Shown here in pieces: positions 15,357 to 39,362 of a stretch of DNA of 64,000 nt (position 1 is its first letter; every line of letters begins with the position of its first letter). The notes beneath the pieces are model-generated. The model made no database searches. It saw only the letters and a list, made by a program, of their open reading frames with translations, and was not told the origin of the DNA. A program made the position numbers and the translations under genes. Source of the DNA: an uncultured Solirubrobacteraceae bacterium (GTDB taxonomy: Bacteria; Actinomycetota; Thermoleophilia; Solirubrobacterales; Solirubrobacteraceae); the NCBI GenBank assembly GCA_963763945.1, contig CAVXQF010000002.1, positions 23,635 through 87,634 on the forward strand, in the 5' to 3' direction.

Positions 15357-16105
15357 GTGAACCTCTACCCGGCGATCGACATCCTCGGCGGCAACGCCGT
15401 GCGCCTCGTCAAGGGCGACTTCGAGGAGAAGAAGGTCTACGACCAGGACCCCTCTCGGCGGCGCGGGCGTTCGCCGAAGAAGGGGCGCGCTACCTGCACG
15501 TGGTCGACCTCGACGGGGCCAAGAGCGGCGAGCCGGTCAACATCGAGCACCTGCGCGCGATCGTCGACGAGCTCGGCCTGCCTGTGCAGTTCGGCGGCGG
15601 CCTGCGCTCGGACGTGTCGATCCAGTCGGCATTCGAAGCCGGCGCGAGCCGCGTGATCCTGGGAACGGCGATCTTCACGGACCCCGAGCTTCCGTTCCGG
15701 GCGATGGAAGAGCACGGCCACGAAAAGGTGCTGATCTCGATCGACGCCCGCGGCGGCTTTGTCGCGACGCACGGCTGGCTGGAGGCGACGGAGGTTCCGG
15801 CACGAGAGGCGATCGAACGTTGGAGCGAAGGCAAAGGCGGCGTCAAGCGCTTCGTCTACACGAACATCGACCACGACGGGATGCTCGACGGCATCGACCT
15901 CGAAGACGCGGCGGGCGCTGTCCGTGCGGTCGACGACGGCAGGTTGATCCTCTCGGGCGGCATCGGTGAGCTTCAGCACCTGCAGGCGATCGCGGCGCTG
16001 CGCGCGGAGCAGCAGCTGGACGGCCTCGACGGCGTGATCGTCGGCAAGGCGCTGTACGAGCGCCGCTTCACGGTCGCCGAGGCGCTGGCCGTGCTCGACG
16101 GCTGA
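15357..16105 (+). CDS. hisA: ProFAR isomerase (apparent 1-nt frameshift near 15450)
   Basis: YPAIDILGGNAVRLVKGD in one frame; LHVVDLDGA, GGGLRS, DGMLDG and VIVGKALY in another. Confidence 0.93.
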
Positions 16106-31257: not shown

Positions 31258-32112
31258 ATGGCCATAATCGGAATAAGAGACCTCGTCCACACGAGCAAGG
31301 ACGTATTGGCACGTGTCGAGGACGATAAGGAGCCCTTTCTCATCACCCGACGGGGGCAGCCGGTCGCTGCGCTGGTCCCAGTTGACGCCGCGGAAGCTGA
31401 GCGTTATGTCCTTGCGAGCGCTCCGGCGCTCGTCGAGAGCCGCAGGAGCGCGGAGGAGAGACCCCGTCGGGCTCGCCCGATCGGCGAGGTCGCTGAGCAT
31501 TACGGCATCGAGCCGAGTGAGCCCGGGAGCAGCATCGAAGCACTCTCCGGGGGGATGGAGATCGTGGCCTCGCTACGGCCTTTCGTCGGCAGGCACGTCG
31601 CGGAACAGTACGCCGAGAAGGCTGATCAGCAACTTGGGTCGATCACCGACAAGGTGCTCAAGACAGCCGAGGGCTGGGGGCTGTTCGAGTCCGACTCAGC
31701 GAGCGACCGTGCAGTGGTCAGCGCGCGTGTGCATGCCCTAAATCAACGCCTGCTCGGATTGGAGGTACGAACGCTGCTCAAGGAGGCTGTGGGACAGCGT
31801 CTGGAGGGCCTCGGCTGGAGTACCGAGGTGGAGGAGACGAGCGACGACGCAAGCGAGGGCGTGTTTGGCAGCTCTTTGGCAGACGAGGCGGTAGATGAGG
31901 CCGTCCAACGCGTAGACGTCGTCAACCAGCGAATCTTTACGCTGGTCGAGCAGGACCCAAGCGCGTTTTCGCTCGCTGCGTATGAGCTCTCGGTGCGTAC
32001 AGGGATCGAGATGCTTGGCAGCAGGATGCCGGCGTATGGCGCCATCGCTTGGGGAGAGGTTCGCAGCGACTACCTCTCGGCCGAGGGTGGCGCGCCACAG
32101 GCTGCTGGTTGA
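31258..32112 (+). CDS. Phd/YefM antitoxin-domain protein with ~200-aa C-terminal extension
   Basis: N-terminal IIGIRDL...VLARVE...EPFLITRRGQPVAALVPVD; remainder unrecognised, acidic and probably helical. Confidence 0.8.
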   Translation: MAIIGIRDLVHTSKDVLARVEDDKEPFLITRRGQPVAALVPVDAAEAERYVLASAPALVESRRSAEERPRRARPIGEVAEHYGIEPSEPGSSIEALSGGMEIVASLRPFVGRHVAEQYAEKADQQLGSITDKVLKTAEGWGLFESDSASDRAVVSARVHALNQRLLGLEVRTLLKEAVGQRLEGLGWSTEVEETSDDASEGVFGSSLADEAVDEAVQRVDVVNQRIFTLVEQDPSAFSLAAYELSVRTGIEMLGSRMPAYGAIAWGEVRSDYLSAEGGAPQAAG

Positions 32113-32636
32113 TCGAGCGCCGCGGCTGCGGCGGATATCTCCTCGTCGTGCTGCGCGCCGATGTTTGATCCTCCAACCAGCAGGACGGTCAGTAGCCCGG
32201 CACCGCCAAGCCCGACGCTGAGGCCAAACAGCCAGCGATAGAGCCAGGCCTCGACGGCTGCGGTCGACCCGATCACGCTGGCGACAGTCGCCGTCCCCAG
32301 GTAGACGAAGGTGGACCGGCGGAGCCAGCGGCGCGCGCGGTAGGCAACCCGGCTGTCAAGCGCGCCCTGAAACAAGGCCACGGCGACAAGTAGCGTCACC
32401 GCAATCTGCGCCGTTGAGGAGAAGAATGAGGATAGGTTTGAGGCGGGATGCTTTTGATCGACGGTTGGCGCGCAGATCACGGCGATCACGGTCACCCCAA
32501 GCGCAACGAGATGGAGCAGCGCGGATCGGTCCGGCGATCGGTGTGAGGTGTCTCGGACCTTGGTCGTCTTCTCGGCGGCTGCGGCGGACGCCCGCTTCTT
32601 CTTCGTTTTCGATTTGACCCTCGGCTTAATCGCCAT
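32070..32636 (-). CDS. Hypothetical membrane protein (about 4 TM, basic N-terminus)
   Basis: ATG overlaps the end of the upstream ORF; Lys-rich N-terminus then hydrophobic segments. Confidence 0.7.
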   Translation of the reverse strand: MAIKPRVKSKTKKKRASAAAAEKTTKVRDTSHRSPDRSALLHLVALGVTVIAVICAPTVDQKHPASNLSSFFSSTAQIAVTLLVAVALFQGALDSRVAYRARRWLRRSTFVYLGTATVASVIGSTAAVEAWLYRWLFGLSVGLGGAGLLTVLLVGGSNIGAQHDEEISAAAAALDQPAACGAPPSAER

Positions 32637-32976
32637 TGATTCGCCCCTCGGCCTCGGCCAAGACCGTTTGTGCGTAGTCCTTGTGAACAACGCGAGCGAC
32701 GGTCAGCATGCCCCGGCCCAGGCCGAGTCGCCAGAGATTGGGCATGCCGGCGCTCCACTGGCAGATGTACCGCCAGTCGCGCAATGAAACGAGGATCCAG
32801 GCGCCGAGCGGACCACGGTTCCATGCCAGCGGCTCAAATCTGATGATGTCTTGGTCGCGGAGTTGTTCAAGTTGTTCGATCGCCTCGGCACGCTGCTCTT
32901 GGCTCATCGCATCGAGATCGGCCCGCGCGCCGTCCGGCTCATCCCAATCGAATTCGATGTCGAACGAGCGTGCCAT
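32626..32976 (-). CDS. RelE/ParE-like small protein
   Basis: 116 aa: A.ADLDAMS...., DWRYIC, LTVARVVHK pattern resembles the RelE fold (by eye). It is the 3' part of the 32626-34221 ORF. Confidence 0.6.
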   Translation of the reverse strand: MARSFDIEFDWDEPDGARADLDAMSQEQRAEAIEQLEQLRDQDIIRFEPLAWNRGPLGAWILVSLRDWRYICQWSAGMPNLWRLGLGRGMLTVARVVHKDYAQTVLAEAEGRINGD

Positions 32977-34641: not shown

Positions 34642-35829
34642 TGGGTCTCCCGTAAACGTTTGACCGGAAACTCGCCTTCGCTGGCGAACCAGGACGCATG
34701 TCCCCGATGTAGGAGGTGGTGATGCGTCCCCCGGATGTGTTCGTGCGCGAGCTCTCGCTCGAGGAGGGCCTGCGGCTGCGCGACATCTCGCGCAAGGCGA
34801 AGTACCAATCCAAGCGTCAGCGGGCGATGATCCTGCTGGCCTCAGCGACCGGGATGTCAGCGCCGCAGATCGCTGGTCTGGTGCGCAGTGACGAGTCGCA
34901 CGTGCGCAAGGTGATTCACGCGTTCAACGAGGAGGGGTTCGGTTCGCTTGACCCTGACTACCGGGGCGGGCGCCCAAGGAAGACGACGCCCGAGCAGCGC
35001 GAGCGCATAGTCGCGGTCGCACGCACCCGCCCCGACCACCAGGGCGTCCCGTTGACGCGCTGGTCGCTGCCCAAGCTGGCCGCGCACCTGGCCGATATGG
35101 GCGTCGAGCTCTCCGAGGAGGCGCTGCGCCAGACGCTGATCAGCGCCGGGCTCTCCCACCAGCGCACGCGCTCGTGGAAGTGGAGCCCGGACCCGGACTT
35201 CCAATCGAAGGCCGAGCGTGTTCTGGCGCTCTACAGAGCCAAGCCCGAGGACGGCGTGGTCGTCTGCTTCGACGAGATGGGCCCGATCGGGCTGATCCCC
35301 CACCAAGGCTCGGGCTGGGCGCCGGCGAAGCGGCCCGAGCGGCTGCGCGCGACCTACAACAAGAACAACGGGGTGCGCTACCTGTTCGGCTCCTACGACG
35401 TGCACACCGACCGCTTTCACGGACGACTGCGGACACACAAGAACGCCGAGGAGGTGCTCGGCTTCTACCGGCAGATCCGGATGCGCTATGACCCGCGCCT
35501 GCGGATCTACCTCGTCGCAGACAACCTCTCCACCCACAAGACGCTGGCGATCCGCGAGTGGGCTGAGACGAGCAACGTCGAGCTCGTGTTCACGCCCACC
35601 TACGCCAGCTTCCTGAACCGCGTCGAGTGCCACTTCTGGGCGATCGGCGAGTTCGTCGTCAAGAACGCCGACTACCCCGACTGGGACACCCTCGCCCGGG
35701 CGATGGCCGCGCACATCACCTACCGCAACGGACCCCACCGCGACCAGCGCCTGATCAAAGCCGAGCGCCGGCTGCTCATCGCCGCCTGAACAATGGGAGT
35801 TCCGGGTGCAACGTTCCTGGGAGACCCAC
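34641..35829 (+). mobile_element. IS630-family insertion sequence
   Basis: Imperfect ~33-bp terminal IRs (GTGGGTCTCCCGTAAACGTTTGACCGGAAACTC / GAGTTCCGGGTGCAACGTTCCTGGGAGACCCAC) with TA duplicated in a CTAG context at both ends. Confidence 0.93.
34716..35789 (+). CDS. IS630 transposase
   Basis: N-terminal HTH, GGRP, RWS; DDE motifs CFDEMGP, VADNLSTH, PTYASFLNRVE. Confidence 0.95.
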   Translation: MVMRPPDVFVRELSLEEGLRLRDISRKAKYQSKRQRAMILLASATGMSAPQIAGLVRSDESHVRKVIHAFNEEGFGSLDPDYRGGRPRKTTPEQRERIVAVARTRPDHQGVPLTRWSLPKLAAHLADMGVELSEEALRQTLISAGLSHQRTRSWKWSPDPDFQSKAERVLALYRAKPEDGVVVCFDEMGPIGLIPHQGSGWAPAKRPERLRATYNKNNGVRYLFGSYDVHTDRFHGRLRTHKNAEEVLGFYRQIRMRYDPRLRIYLVADNLSTHKTLAIREWAETSNVELVFTPTYASFLNRVECHFWAIGEFVVKNADYPDWDTLARAMAAHITYRNGPHRDQRLIKAERRLLIAA

Positions 35830-37065: not shown

Positions 37066-37148
37066 GATGCTCCGCAAATATGGCGGCGGGGCGGCGCGGG
37101 CACATGCAACCGCCGGATTCGGCGCGGGTGCCTGCGAAGATGGCCTGC

Positions 37149-38258
37149 ATGAGCTGGCTCTTGACGATCCTGGGGATCGTGCTGCTGATCGTGCTGCACG
37201 AGCTCGGCCACTTCACGGTGGCGAAGCTCGTGGGCATGCGCGTGGAGCGCTTCTCGCTGTTCTTCCCGCCGACGATCGCGCGCTTCAAACGCGGCGAGAC
37301 GGAGTACGCGCTGGGGTCGATCCCGGCGGGCGGCTACGTGAAGATCACGGGGATGAACCCGGAAGAGCTGGAGGACCTCGATCCGGAGGCGACGCGCCGG
37401 GCCTACTACAGCCAGCCGCCGTGGAAGCGGATCGCGGTGATCGTGGCGGGCCCGGGCGTGAACATCGTGATCGCGTTCGTGCTGTTCTGGGCGGTGCTGC
37501 TCTCGGGCAGTCTCACGGGGGCGACGGTGCTCTACAACCTGGACCCGGCGACGGAAGCGGTCAGCGCGACGTCGCGCGTACAGGCCGTGCAGGGCGGCGC
37601 GCCGGCGGCCAGGGTTCTGCGCCCGGGTGACCGGATCGTCGCGGTCGACGGGGCGGCGGTCTCCGAAGCGGGGGCACGCAGCCGGATCGACGCGCATCGC
37701 TGCGTGGGCGTGGCCGTCGAAGGCTGCCGCGCGAGCACGCCGGCGGTGCTGACGATACGCCGTGGCGCAAAGACGATGCACGTCTCGATCAAGCCGCGCT
37801 ACAGCAATGCGGCCAAGCGCATGCTGATCGGCGTCGAATTCGGCGTGGCGGCGAAGTCGTTCGGAGCGCTTGGCGCGGCGGGTGCGTCGGTAGGTGCGAT
37901 GTGGCACGCGACGACGAGCACGCTGACAGGCTTCTTCAAAGCGCTGACGAGCTCGAAGACGCGCAAAGAAGTGAGCAGCATCGTCGGCATCACGAGGGCG
38001 GCGCACGAAACGGTCGTGGCGGGGCCGGGCAAGGCGCTGGTGTTCCTCGGCTACATCTCGCTTGTGCTGGCGGTCATCAACCTGTTCCCGTTCCTGCCGC
38101 TCGACGGCGGGCACGTGCTGTGGTCGGTGGCGGAGAAGGTCCGCGGCAAGCGCATCTCGCTGATGGCGATGTACCGCTACAGCTCGGTCGGGATCATCCT
38201 GCTGCTGTTCCTGGTGATCAACGGCGTGGGGAACGACATCGGCCGGCTCGGCGGTTAG
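37149..38258 (+). CDS. rseP: RIP metalloprotease RseP (M50)
   Basis: HELGH, IPAGGYVKI, AGPGVN, PDZ-like LRPGDRIVAVDG, NLFPFLPLDGGH. Confidence 0.95.
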   Translation: MSWLLTILGIVLLIVLHELGHFTVAKLVGMRVERFSLFFPPTIARFKRGETEYALGSIPAGGYVKITGMNPEELEDLDPEATRRAYYSQPPWKRIAVIVAGPGVNIVIAFVLFWAVLLSGSLTGATVLYNLDPATEAVSATSRVQAVQGGAPAARVLRPGDRIVAVDGAAVSEAGARSRIDAHRCVGVAVEGCRASTPAVLTIRRGAKTMHVSIKPRYSNAAKRMLIGVEFGVAAKSFGALGAAGASVGAMWHATTSTLTGFFKALTSSKTRKEVSSIVGITRAAHETVVAGPGKALVFLGYISLVLAVINLFPFLPLDGGHVLWSVAEKVRGKRISLMAMYRYSSVGIILLLFLVINGVGNDIGRLGG

Positions 38259-38369
38259 CCGGATCTTGTGCAAGACCCTCGCCAGACGCCGGCTGGCCTT
38301 CTCAGACCGTCGCGCAGTTGCGGATGCGGCATCTCAGACATCTGTACCCATCGCTAGACTGAGCAGCAC

Positions 38370-38457
38370 GGAAGGTGAATTGGCGAGGTGCCATGAACGG
38401 CTGATAACCGGGAGTCCGGCGTAGCCGTCGGATGGGGTTCGAGTCCTCCTCCTTCCG
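38370..38457 (+). tRNA. Non-canonical 8/4 allo-tRNA-like gene, anticodon GAT, long variable arm, discriminator G, no encoded CCA
   Basis: Acceptor GGAAGGTG/CTCCTTCC (8 positions, one mismatch); D stem TGGC/GCCA; anticodon loop CT-GAT-AA closed by CGG/CCG; V-arm GTCCGGCG-TAGC-CGTCGGAT; T arm GGGG-TTCGAGT-CCTC (4 bp); TAGACT -10 at 38355. Confidence 0.8.
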
Positions 38458-38714
38458 CGAGCGACTTGGGCGGCCAAGCGGCCACGGATAGGCGCCAATC
38501 ATCACGCGCTCGGCGGGTAGCAACCGCCATTGCAGAGATCCGGCCGTTTGGCCGTCGAGCCGCAAGGCGTGGTACCGTGGGTCTTGGTTATCAGCCGTTG
38601 CGGGGTAGCTCCTCGCCTTCCGACCCGCCGTACGGCGGGTCGGAACGTTCTAGGCCTAGAGCCGGCGGATCTCGTTGGACAGCGACGGGCTCCCGGGCCC
38701 TTGTCAAGGCCCGG
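38458..38714 (+). ncRNA. Candidate structured RNA (tRNA 3' trailer or separate anti-tRNA RNA)
   Basis: Nested stems CGAGCG/CGCTCG, GAGATCCG/CGGATCTC and AAGGCG/CGCCTT; perfect 28-bp palindrome 38618-38645; 14-nt complement to the tRNA anticodon arm; terminal hairpin 38693-38714. Confidence 0.55.
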
Positions 38715-38720
38715 ATTTGG

Positions 38721-39362
38721 CTAACTATTCACCGGAACCTCGTTGGCCGGCCGCACGCAGACCCAGCTCTTGACGAGCGGGCCGATGCGCTCGGGCAGCG
38801 CGGGCACTCCGAACAGCGCCTCCATCTGCCGGCGGCGCAGCAGTGCGATCTGCTCCCACTCGCCGGCAGCGCCCAGGCGCCAGTAGGACCTGCGCAGGCC
38901 GACGGGCAGCCAGTGCGCGAAGGGCAGCAGCGCATGCGGCTCGATCGGGAAGGAGTAGGCGGGCGTCTGCACGTAGAAGCCGCGCCCGACGCGGCGCAGC
39001 TCGGCGGCGAAGGCGGCACGCCTGGGCGGCGGCACGTGCTCGATCACGCTGGAGCAGTAGACGAGGTCGAACTCATCGTCGGCGAAGGGCAGGCCGTCGG
39101 CGGCGTCGGCCTGCACGAACGGGCCGGGGTAGTCGGGGCGCGGCTGCAGGTCGACGCCGGTGATGTCGAGCCGGGGCTCGAGCGCGCGCAGGCCGATCTG
39201 ACCGCAGCCGAGGTCGAGCACACGGGCGCCCGGTCGCAGGCCGGTCAGCGCGAAGAACCGGGCGTGGCGGCGGGCGCGAGCGCGGGTGGCGAGGGGAGAG
39301 GCGAGGCGCGCGAGCGGGCCGCGCGCGGTTCCATACACGTCCTGAGCGTGCGATTCGGCCAT
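38721..39362 (-). CDS. Class I SAM-dependent methyltransferase
   Basis: VLDLGCG, LPFADDEFDLVYCSSVIEHV, QTPAYSFPIEPH. Confidence 0.92.
   Translation of the reverse strand: MAESHAQDVYGTARGPLARLASPLATRARARRHARFFALTGLRPGARVLDLGCGQIGLRALEPRLDITGVDLQPRPDYPGPFVQADAADGLPFADDEFDLVYCSSVIEHVPPPRRAAFAAELRRVGRGFYVQTPAYSFPIEPHALLPFAHWLPVGLRRSYWRLGAAGEWEQIALLRRRQMEALFGVPALPERIGPLVKSWVCVRPANEVPVNS

Follow-up and report, generated by a model that had tools for sequence, protein, structure and literature searches.

Based on a comparison of related loci, we propose that a cassette of ~320 bases in an uncultured Solirubrobacteraceae bacterium is probably an RNA-only toxin–antitoxin module, in which a mistranslating tRNA would act as the toxin and an antisense RNA as the antidote. 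The cassette comprises an allo-tRNA-like gene, then a trailer, then an antisense unit. In the sequences compared below, this architecture and a three-way co-variation between anticodon arm, antisense segment and trailer are established. The window, by which we mean the whole stretch of DNA analysed, is 64,000 nt of contig CAVXQF010000002.1 (assembly GCA_963763945.1). There the cassette lies in a dxr-rseP-ispG neighbourhood, between an RseP-like M50 peptidase gene (37080-38258, plus strand; Pfam Peptidase_M50, 1e-53) and a convergent SAM methyltransferase gene (38721-39362, minus strand; Pfam Methyltransf_11) that is present at the relatives' empty site; both genes serve as context only. A terminal hairpin noted in the first-pass annotation can be located at 38693-38714, 7 nt from the end of the methyltransferase ORF at 38721, but the two closest relatives, L119 and L210, lack it; it probably lies outside the cassette and is possibly the terminator of the convergent methyltransferase gene. 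A coding role of the region was rejected, since a 1-nt deletion in a close relative disrupts its 64-aa ORF (38530-38724). Elsewhere, the window holds an IS630-like transposase gene (DDE_3, HTH; 34716-35789, plus strand) inserted upstream of dxr, and a 284-aa ORF (31258-32112, plus strand) with an N-terminal Phd/YefM antitoxin domain and a long remainder devoid of annotation; the ORF convergent to it (32070-32690) has no Pfam match. ARAGORN calls a tRNA-Pro(CGG) at 15921-16010 (plus strand), besides another Pro(CGG) elsewhere in the genome; its length (90 nt) is unusual, and it is possibly a false call.

The allo-tRNA-like gene

The tRNA gene occupies 38370-38460 on the plus strand. It carries the anticodon GAU at 38404-38406, the discriminator G73 at G38457, a long variable arm with an 8-bp variable stem and one U.U mismatch in the acceptor stem, and does not encode CCA. 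ARAGORN missed it. Its Rfam match, tRNA-Sec (RF01852), was rejected as an identity: the score is 28.3 bits against a gathering threshold of 47, and the anticodon is GAU, not UCA. A predicted -10 box, TAGACT (38355-38360, plus strand), stands where relatives have a TANNNT motif 5' of the tRNA, which falls 5-16 nt (mostly 8-12) upstream in 82 of 104 family loci; a sigma-70 consensus scan gave no full promoter at this box.

Relatives were collected in two sets. A degenerate pattern, run over 62 of the 64 parts of a genome collection, found 119 loci, most of them on records titled Solirubrobacterales, Conexibacter, Gaiellaceae or Actinomycetes. Together with two viral loci and the window, and after removal of 11 loci without an 8-bp acceptor stem, one duplicate and six serine-anticodon tRNAs that were kept as controls, these yielded 104 unique genes. 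One of the 11 loci excluded for the acceptor, L112, looks like a true member with a deletion. A covariance model, not bound by the pattern, provided a second set: 72 loci that score more than 50 bits, one of them overlapping the first set. U33, A37, the D-loop GG and the T loop were prescribed by the pattern and are therefore not findings; G73 was left free. As kindred loci lack independence and the score cut-offs were set once the data had been seen, the antisense and co-variation counts that follow are descriptive.

Across 71 aligned relatives the 8/4 cloverleaf is paired to 99.5% in the acceptor stem, 99.6% in the T stem and 95% in the D stem, and double changes number 337, compared with 108 in shuffles. 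Pairing in the anticodon stem of the same relatives is weak (62%), and at the top of this stem the pairs 26:44 and 27:43 are mostly unpaired in the family. The D stem has 6 bp and AGGU in some members, and ~5 bp with a 5-nt loop in the window. G73 is found in 103 of the 104 family genes, and the acceptor start resembles that of the host tRNA-Ser genes, which likewise do not encode CCA. Ten anticodons occur among the 104 genes (GAU 34, GAC 31, GCC 15, GAG 9, GUC 5, CAG 4 and four rarer ones). They read abundant Ile, Val, Asp, Leu and Gly codons; in the pooled set the codons read rank 2-14 in the host, with one 25th, and none is for Ser or Ala. The window tRNA is a new lineage of a known kind, the (8/4) allo-tRNAs, which likewise combine an 8-bp acceptor and a 4-bp T stem with a long variable arm, G73 and non-serine anticodons (PMC5389517; review PMC7609411). 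Its shape, G73, long variable arm, tRNA-Ser-like acceptor start and non-serine anticodon suggest that it would be charged with serine and would misread AUC codons, likely placing serine at isoleucine positions.

The antisense segment and the trailer

A 14-nt segment at 38586-38599 (plus strand) is the exact reverse complement of the anticodon arm at 38396-38409, as the first-pass annotation had observed, and would pair with tRNA positions 27-40. No other copy exists in the window when one mismatch is allowed (0 in 100 shuffles), or, at the same tolerance, in the main contig of the genome. Co-variation of the segment with the anticodon arm, which had been named as the decisive test, was found across related loci. 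When at least 13 of 17 Watson-Crick pairs with the anticodon arm of the same locus are required and the distance is limited to 290 nt, 92 of 104 loci have an antisense segment on the tRNA's strand and 6 of 104 have one on the opposite strand; control segments from the D, V, T and acceptor regions reach this threshold in 4-8 of 104. In foreign flanks the match is seen in 20% with the same anticodon and in 3.9% with a different one. With a wobble-tolerant score the unit is recognised in 102 of the 104 pattern-found loci, and it occurs in 64 of the 72 model-found loci, a total left unchanged by inspection by eye (L179 in, L222 out). The eight model-found loci without it are four tRNAs with a UAG anticodon, two contig ends, L250, whose tRNA is damaged, and L222. 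Over 163 pooled loci the triplet opposite the anticodon is exact in 150, wobble-paired in 9 and mismatched in 4. Among 33 disjoint pairs of close tRNAs that differ in their anticodon, the triplet follows the switch in 25 and does not follow it exactly in the other eight. Many relatives have a further stretch that tracks tRNA nt 5-10, with runs of at least 6 nt in 74 of 150 (8.9% when swapped); in the window this pairing site is weak and falls partly within the closing hairpin. Host tRNA-Ile was rejected as the target, with only the 7-nt loop in common. The six 8/4 tRNAs with serine anticodons have no antisense unit. These control genes (L036, L046, L093, L130, L021 and L022) sit mostly in tRNA clusters and derive from three Armatimonadota-type MAGs, one Actinomycetota MAG and two viral contigs.

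Because it co-varies with the anticodon arm, the segment is not a decayed inversion, and since G:U mismatches far exceed A:C ones in the pattern set (150 against 30), the evidence points to pairing between transcribed strands rather than to a DNA repeat. The unit does resemble a reversed copy of the tRNA 5' half, and in some sub-families the match extends through the D-arm; an origin as such a copy is plausible. That it should still be an inert remnant, a decayed inverted duplication or inverted repeats homogenised at the DNA level with no RNA function, is barely credible. The match is confined to the anticodon arm, the promoter and closing hairpin are conserved, a third site in the trailer loop also tracks the anticodon, and the strand-specific wobble bias, which recurs in the acidobacterial type described below (42 G:U against 10 A:C), already largely refutes such inertness.

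The antisense unit is predicted to be an independent RNA of ~65 nt, equipped with a -10 box and a closing hairpin of its own. Its predicted extended -10 promoter, TG-n-TACCGT (38570-38578, plus strand), holds the position of a TANNNT motif that lies 5-11 nt 5' of the antisense segment in 89 of 102 units (background 0.3%); 44 of 102 also have the TGn extension. Downstream of the segment comes a first hairpin, GCGGGG-UAGCU-CCUCGC (38600-38616, plus strand), defined by folding, which to the eye resembles the trailer's second hairpin and many variable-arm tips. Its 3' arm is made of the first six bases of CCTCGCC at 38611; this motif, earlier taken as a complement of the D-arm/5' region, is present, but with 27 copies in the window the match is no more than chance would give. 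Apart from the 14-nt segment, the matches named in the first-pass annotation are 7-8 nt long. The 28-nt palindrome reported at 38618-38645 is confirmed and can be reread as the closing hairpin of the unit, a GC-rich motif conserved in 99 of 102 units. In the window this hairpin, with a short U-poor tail, spans 38618-38652 (plus strand) and is the predicted terminator. A U-tract terminator scan did not call it, and a consensus scan of the window's cassette region returned neither promoter nor terminator. The antisense/tRNA pair of the window has a predicted binding energy of -17 kcal/mol, and the codon within the antisense segment is predicted open in 69 of 101 units. Three soil metatranscriptomes contained no contig over 38313-38716 and only short partial pieces of an acidobacterial-type locus, which is not evidence either way on expression, and in a search of expression runs no run matched half of the cassette's words.

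The unit lies downstream of the tRNA on the same strand in 100 of 102 loci and on the same strand overall in 101 of 102; the best unit is upstream in L139 and on the opposite strand, with no overlap with the tRNA, in L134. Two antisense-type units are found at each of L139, L083 and L231; in L139 it is the upstream unit that fits the tRNA now in place, and the downstream unit has the look of a remnant matched to an earlier anticodon arm. The first-pass annotation had envisaged a single nested transcript, whose distal 14 nt folds back and clamps the tRNA in cis until processed. The predominantly downstream, same-strand arrangement, the lack of a clear terminator between tRNA and unit and the in silico fold of the whole region all agree with such a clamp, and read-through could make it a minor route. 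As the principal mechanism it is very improbable, given the dedicated -10 box immediately 5' of the segment in most units, the upstream and inverted units of L139 and L134, and the near-consensus -35/-10 pair that precedes the segment in 57 of 100 acidobacterial units. The helix said to close the nested fold, GAGATCCG (38535) with CGGATCTC (38666), has its sequences in place, but the 8-bp closure is conserved in only 3 of 104 long-trailer loci, the window among them. Instead of one fold there are two elements, a cis trailer (38458-38560) and the separate antisense unit. The earlier idea of an all-RNA toxin and antidote is retained as the best reading, but the anti-anticodon segment is placed outside the cis trailer, because it has its own TANNNT box, is upstream in L139 and is on the opposite strand in L134.

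The trailer is a real cis element of a different kind from the one first described. In the fold of the window piece, and in single folds of relatives, a long stem (38466-38559, plus strand) closes a three-way junction with two hairpins, at 38491-38510 and 38512-38528 in the window. RNAalifold on the gappy trailer alignment gave no consensus structure, so the junction is drawn from single-sequence folds. The spacer is 95-180 nt long in 49 loci of the first set, most of which fold as a long stem with two apical hairpins. In the window one loop displays AUC-A (38501-38504, plus strand), complementary to U33-G34-A35-U36 of the tRNA. Among the 49 aligned loci 44 show the codon for their own anticodon followed by A, against a mean of 21.3 and a maximum of 31 in 10,000 label shuffles; in 104 pooled loci the codon loop is exact in 84 and fits in 94 allowing one wobble (4.2% when swapped). 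The codon sits 37-49 nt 3' of the discriminator. The GCC sub-family has a single hairpin displaying GGCA (13 of 14), in two sister loci with C33 a G replaces the A of the loop, and no codon loop is present in 14 short-spacer loci and most other mid-spacer loci. It is through this 4-nt loop that the trailer tracks the anticodon, not through the D-arm: the proposed D-arm/5' complement CGCCAAT (38493) is there, but trailers match tRNA nt 7-26 in 18 of 104 loci, against 14.2% when swapped. By analogy, the loop may work like the specifier of a T-box with a short stem I, and we infer that its contact with the anticodon forms in cis.

Distribution and the published acidobacterial type

At the window's site the cassette is absent from 29 of 29 fetched same-genus loci (56 relatives had a match). 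A near-identical cassette lies in another context in L119 and in a soil contig, which delimits a mobile core of ~38329-38650. Between one and four copies above 50 bits occur in 42 of 151 genomes of the genus, a tally that includes the window's genome and the unpublished G340; in a sample of the class 9 of 151 genomes carry the cassette above 50 bits. The neighbours of 63 loci (122 ORFs) are mostly housekeeping genes at recurring sites: a CobQ-like gene in 22, amtB in 9, an epimerase in 7 and groEL in 3. At the commonest of these, the CobQ-like site, four anticodons occur, each with a matched antisense. No common partner protein or integrase was found among the 122 ORFs. In viral contigs the cassette pattern had no match and the tRNA pattern two, both serine-anticodon tRNAs without a unit. 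Decay is also visible. In L058 and L250 the antisense unit is lost and the acceptor stem damaged; in L222 the tRNA is apparently intact, there is no unit within 500 nt, and the trailer is interrupted by foreign-looking, IS-like sequence. L264 has a T-arm duplication and a decayed antisense segment. An antisense unit is missing from four related 8/4 tRNAs whose anticodon is UAG (Leu), L215, L228, L260 and L265; two of them, L228 and L260, have altered T loops and resemble each other in the sequence downstream, possibly the mark of an insertion site. Cassettes of the Thermoleophilia type also occur on contigs titled Gemmatimonadaceae (L026), Alphaproteobacteria (L069) and Rhizobiaceae (L114), either through transfer or through mis-binning or mislabelling.

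Are the published allo-tRNAs accompanied by the same element? The D-arm motif in the table of Mukai retrieves loci with antisense units of the same kind. It identified 122 metagenome stretches (7 of 64 parts scanned; ~1200 estimated) with 124 matches; less nine that were duplicate or cut, these are 115 unique tRNAs, and less two that were mis-parsed, 113. In this acidobacterial ‘major’ type 100 of 113 have an antisense segment downstream of the tRNA (0 in the reverse-strand control), and the 100 units have a -10 box in 91 and a U-rich terminator in 77. The short trailer pairs with the variable arm over at least 7 bp in 100 of 113 (7 in the control), an arrangement absent from the Thermoleophilia type (5 of 175 loci, 7 in the control). 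Because the arm is conserved, compensation between trailer and variable arm is visible in a few loci only, by eye. Within the family of the L077 genome, titled Acidobacteriales, 27 of 151 genomes match, a tally that includes the unpublished G615. Of 25 listed loci, two are at contig ends and one is from the unpublished genome, leaving 22; by eye, 17 of these are allo-tRNAs of the same or a close type, all with the unit, and the remaining four UAU-type tRNAs and one ordinary tRNA-Ser have none. One metagenome contig (L273-L274) bears several tandem cassettes with different anticodons and a repeated element between them. This layout recalls repeated type I toxin–antitoxin loci.

In the available part of the original account, allo-tRNAs come from Clostridia, Proteobacteria and Acidobacteria and lie near protein toxin–antitoxin genes, and two from Silvibacterium put Ser at Leu codons and killed E. 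coli (PMC5389517). The same part reports that six UAU-type allo-tRNAs had no suppressor activity and that two UAU-type tRNAs without such activity caused cell death (Mukai, PMC5389517). The lethality of these two would suit a non-decoding decoy, that is, an uncharged tRNA-like RNA directed at a synthetase, the stringent response, T-boxes or anticodon nucleases, whose activity the antisense RNA and the trailer would gate through the anticodon. The weak anticodon stem, the C33 variants (7 of 72 model-found relatives, with A33 in one) and the minimum-energy fold of the window tRNA, which is not a cloverleaf, point the same way. We nevertheless regard a decoy as unlikely, since the acceptor and T stems are more than 99% paired with compensatory changes, G73 is almost invariant, the acceptor start is like that of host tRNA-Ser, and the UAU type is precisely the one without the antisense unit.

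The patchy, multi-copy and many-site distribution, in the absence of a partner protein, counts in favour of a toxin–antitoxin module, as do the damaged acceptor stems of the two loci that have lost the unit (L058 and L250). Yet the same loci might serve their host as a tunable mistranslation switch, one in which serine misincorporation under stress is dosed by the small RNA, with neither addiction nor lethality. In line with this reading are the long persistence at fixed housekeeping sites (CobQ-like and amtB), neighbours free of mobile-element genes except for one IS481 piece, and carriage by 42 of the 151 genomes of the genus; given that 22 of 63 loci share one conserved site and that integrases and mobile elements are not linked, a host function fits as well as selfish persistence. 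The occurrence of four anticodons at one site, each with its matched antisense, copy numbers from 0 to 4, the tandem cassettes with different anticodons and the lack of a linked protein regulator argue the other way, and we rate a switch as improbable, if somewhat less so than a decoy. Anticodon variety, copy-number variation and tandem cassettes are as expected of specificity divergence between addiction modules.

Proposed mechanism and comparison with known systems

How would such a module work? Based on the published properties of allo-tRNAs (Mukai 2017, PMC5389517, as far as its available text goes), serylation of the tRNA and toxic mistranslation would constitute the poison. The ~65-nt antisense RNA, the 5' end of which is complementary to the anticodon arm, would silence the tRNA; co-variation shows that complementarity between segment and arm is maintained, with a G:U bias typical of RNA. 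As a transcript of its own, it might start from a codon–anticodon loop contact and invade the weak anticodon stem, rescuing the cell. The trailer loop that matches the anticodon may meanwhile hold the 3'-extended precursor inactive in cis, creating a slowly maturing reservoir. The hok mRNA is such a slowly maturing, inert precursor. Upon loss of the cassette or shut-off of transcription, mature tRNA would outlast the antidote. Counted against a toxin–antitoxin module are the U.U mismatch, the non-cloverleaf fold, the mostly unpaired top of the family's anticodon stem, the C33 and A33 variants, L222 and the UAG tRNAs without a unit, the eight of 33 close pairs that do not follow the switch exactly, and the consensus scan that gave neither promoter nor terminator. 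More broadly, the chances are about even that a widespread class of protein-free toxin–antitoxin systems has missense allo-tRNAs as its toxins and is built of three RNA parts that co-evolve. If so, the parts would be a serine-charged tRNA that corrupts the proteome, an anti-anticodon RNA that acts in trans as antidote, and a cis trailer that locks the precursor, either as a T-box-like codon loop in Thermoleophilia or as a strand masking the variable arm in the acidobacterial type; specificity would be re-coded by joint change at three sites.

When allo-tRNAs were published in 2017 their function was left open in the text available, although some of them cause mistranslation and are lethal to E. 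coli; an antisense RNA encoded next to them and matched to their anticodon would account for their being tolerated by the cell. Most of the main text of PMC5389517 describes neither an antisense RNA nor a trailer. In the text of its supplement ‘antisense’, ‘complementary’, ‘Conexibacter’ and ‘Solirubrobacter’ have no occurrence, and GAU as a whole word occurs 12 times, always as a codon and never as an anticodon; ‘antisense’ has no occurrence in the text of PMC7609411 or PMC7590224. We found no description of tRNA–antisense pairing in the literature searched, which was text rather than figures and largely outside subscription journals. If confirmed, the cassette would bring together a toxin–antitoxin system with a tRNA toxin, a naturally occurring antisense RNA directed at an anticodon arm, and an anticodon reader similar to a T-box that acts in cis on a precursor, none of which we found described in that literature. 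A compact, programmable means of switching off allo-tRNAs would then also be at hand; these tRNAs are already in use as engineering scaffolds (PMC7590224).

Several known systems share single traits with the cassette. In the T-box with a short stem I, as described in the available part of PMC7583486, a codon plus purine is likewise displayed in an apical loop beside a neighbouring stem, and the cassette has this specifier codon and 3' purine in a loop that matches the anticodon; the trailer, in contrast, is joined 3' to its own tRNA. A T-box riboswitch was rejected: Rfam gave no T-box hit, no conserved bulge, S-turn, antiterminator or downstream amino-acid gene was found, and the genes beside the cassettes are unrelated housekeeping genes. 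The T-box look-alike TGGTACCG at 38570 corresponds to the -10 box and shows no conservation as a bulge. CreTA (PMC8501985, PMC10097628, available parts) is likewise an addiction module of two small RNAs tied to tRNA biology, but CreT sequesters a host tRNA or other RNAs and CreA represses transcription via CRISPR effectors, whereas the pairing predicted here is directly between RNAs. It was rejected, with no Cas family among the 122 neighbouring ORFs of 63 loci and no Rfam CRISPR repeat in the window. The type I system hok/Sok likewise has a small antisense antidote, but its toxin is a peptide made from an mRNA (PMC8610362, available part). The nearest known class, as far as the available part of PMC8610362 describes it, is type VIII toxin–antitoxin, in which an RNA toxin is likewise masked by an antisense RNA antitoxin and which contains neither a tRNA toxin nor this layout. 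In its representative SdsR/RyeA, SdsR is an mRNA-targeting sRNA and RyeA overlaps it on the opposite strand. At the sequence level the cassette shares the complementarity of antitoxin RNA to toxin RNA but not the overlapping, opposite-strand layout (101 of 102 units are tandem on the same strand); its proposed toxin is a tRNA, and its antidote is a tandem, same-strand, partially complementary RNA aimed at the anticodon arm.
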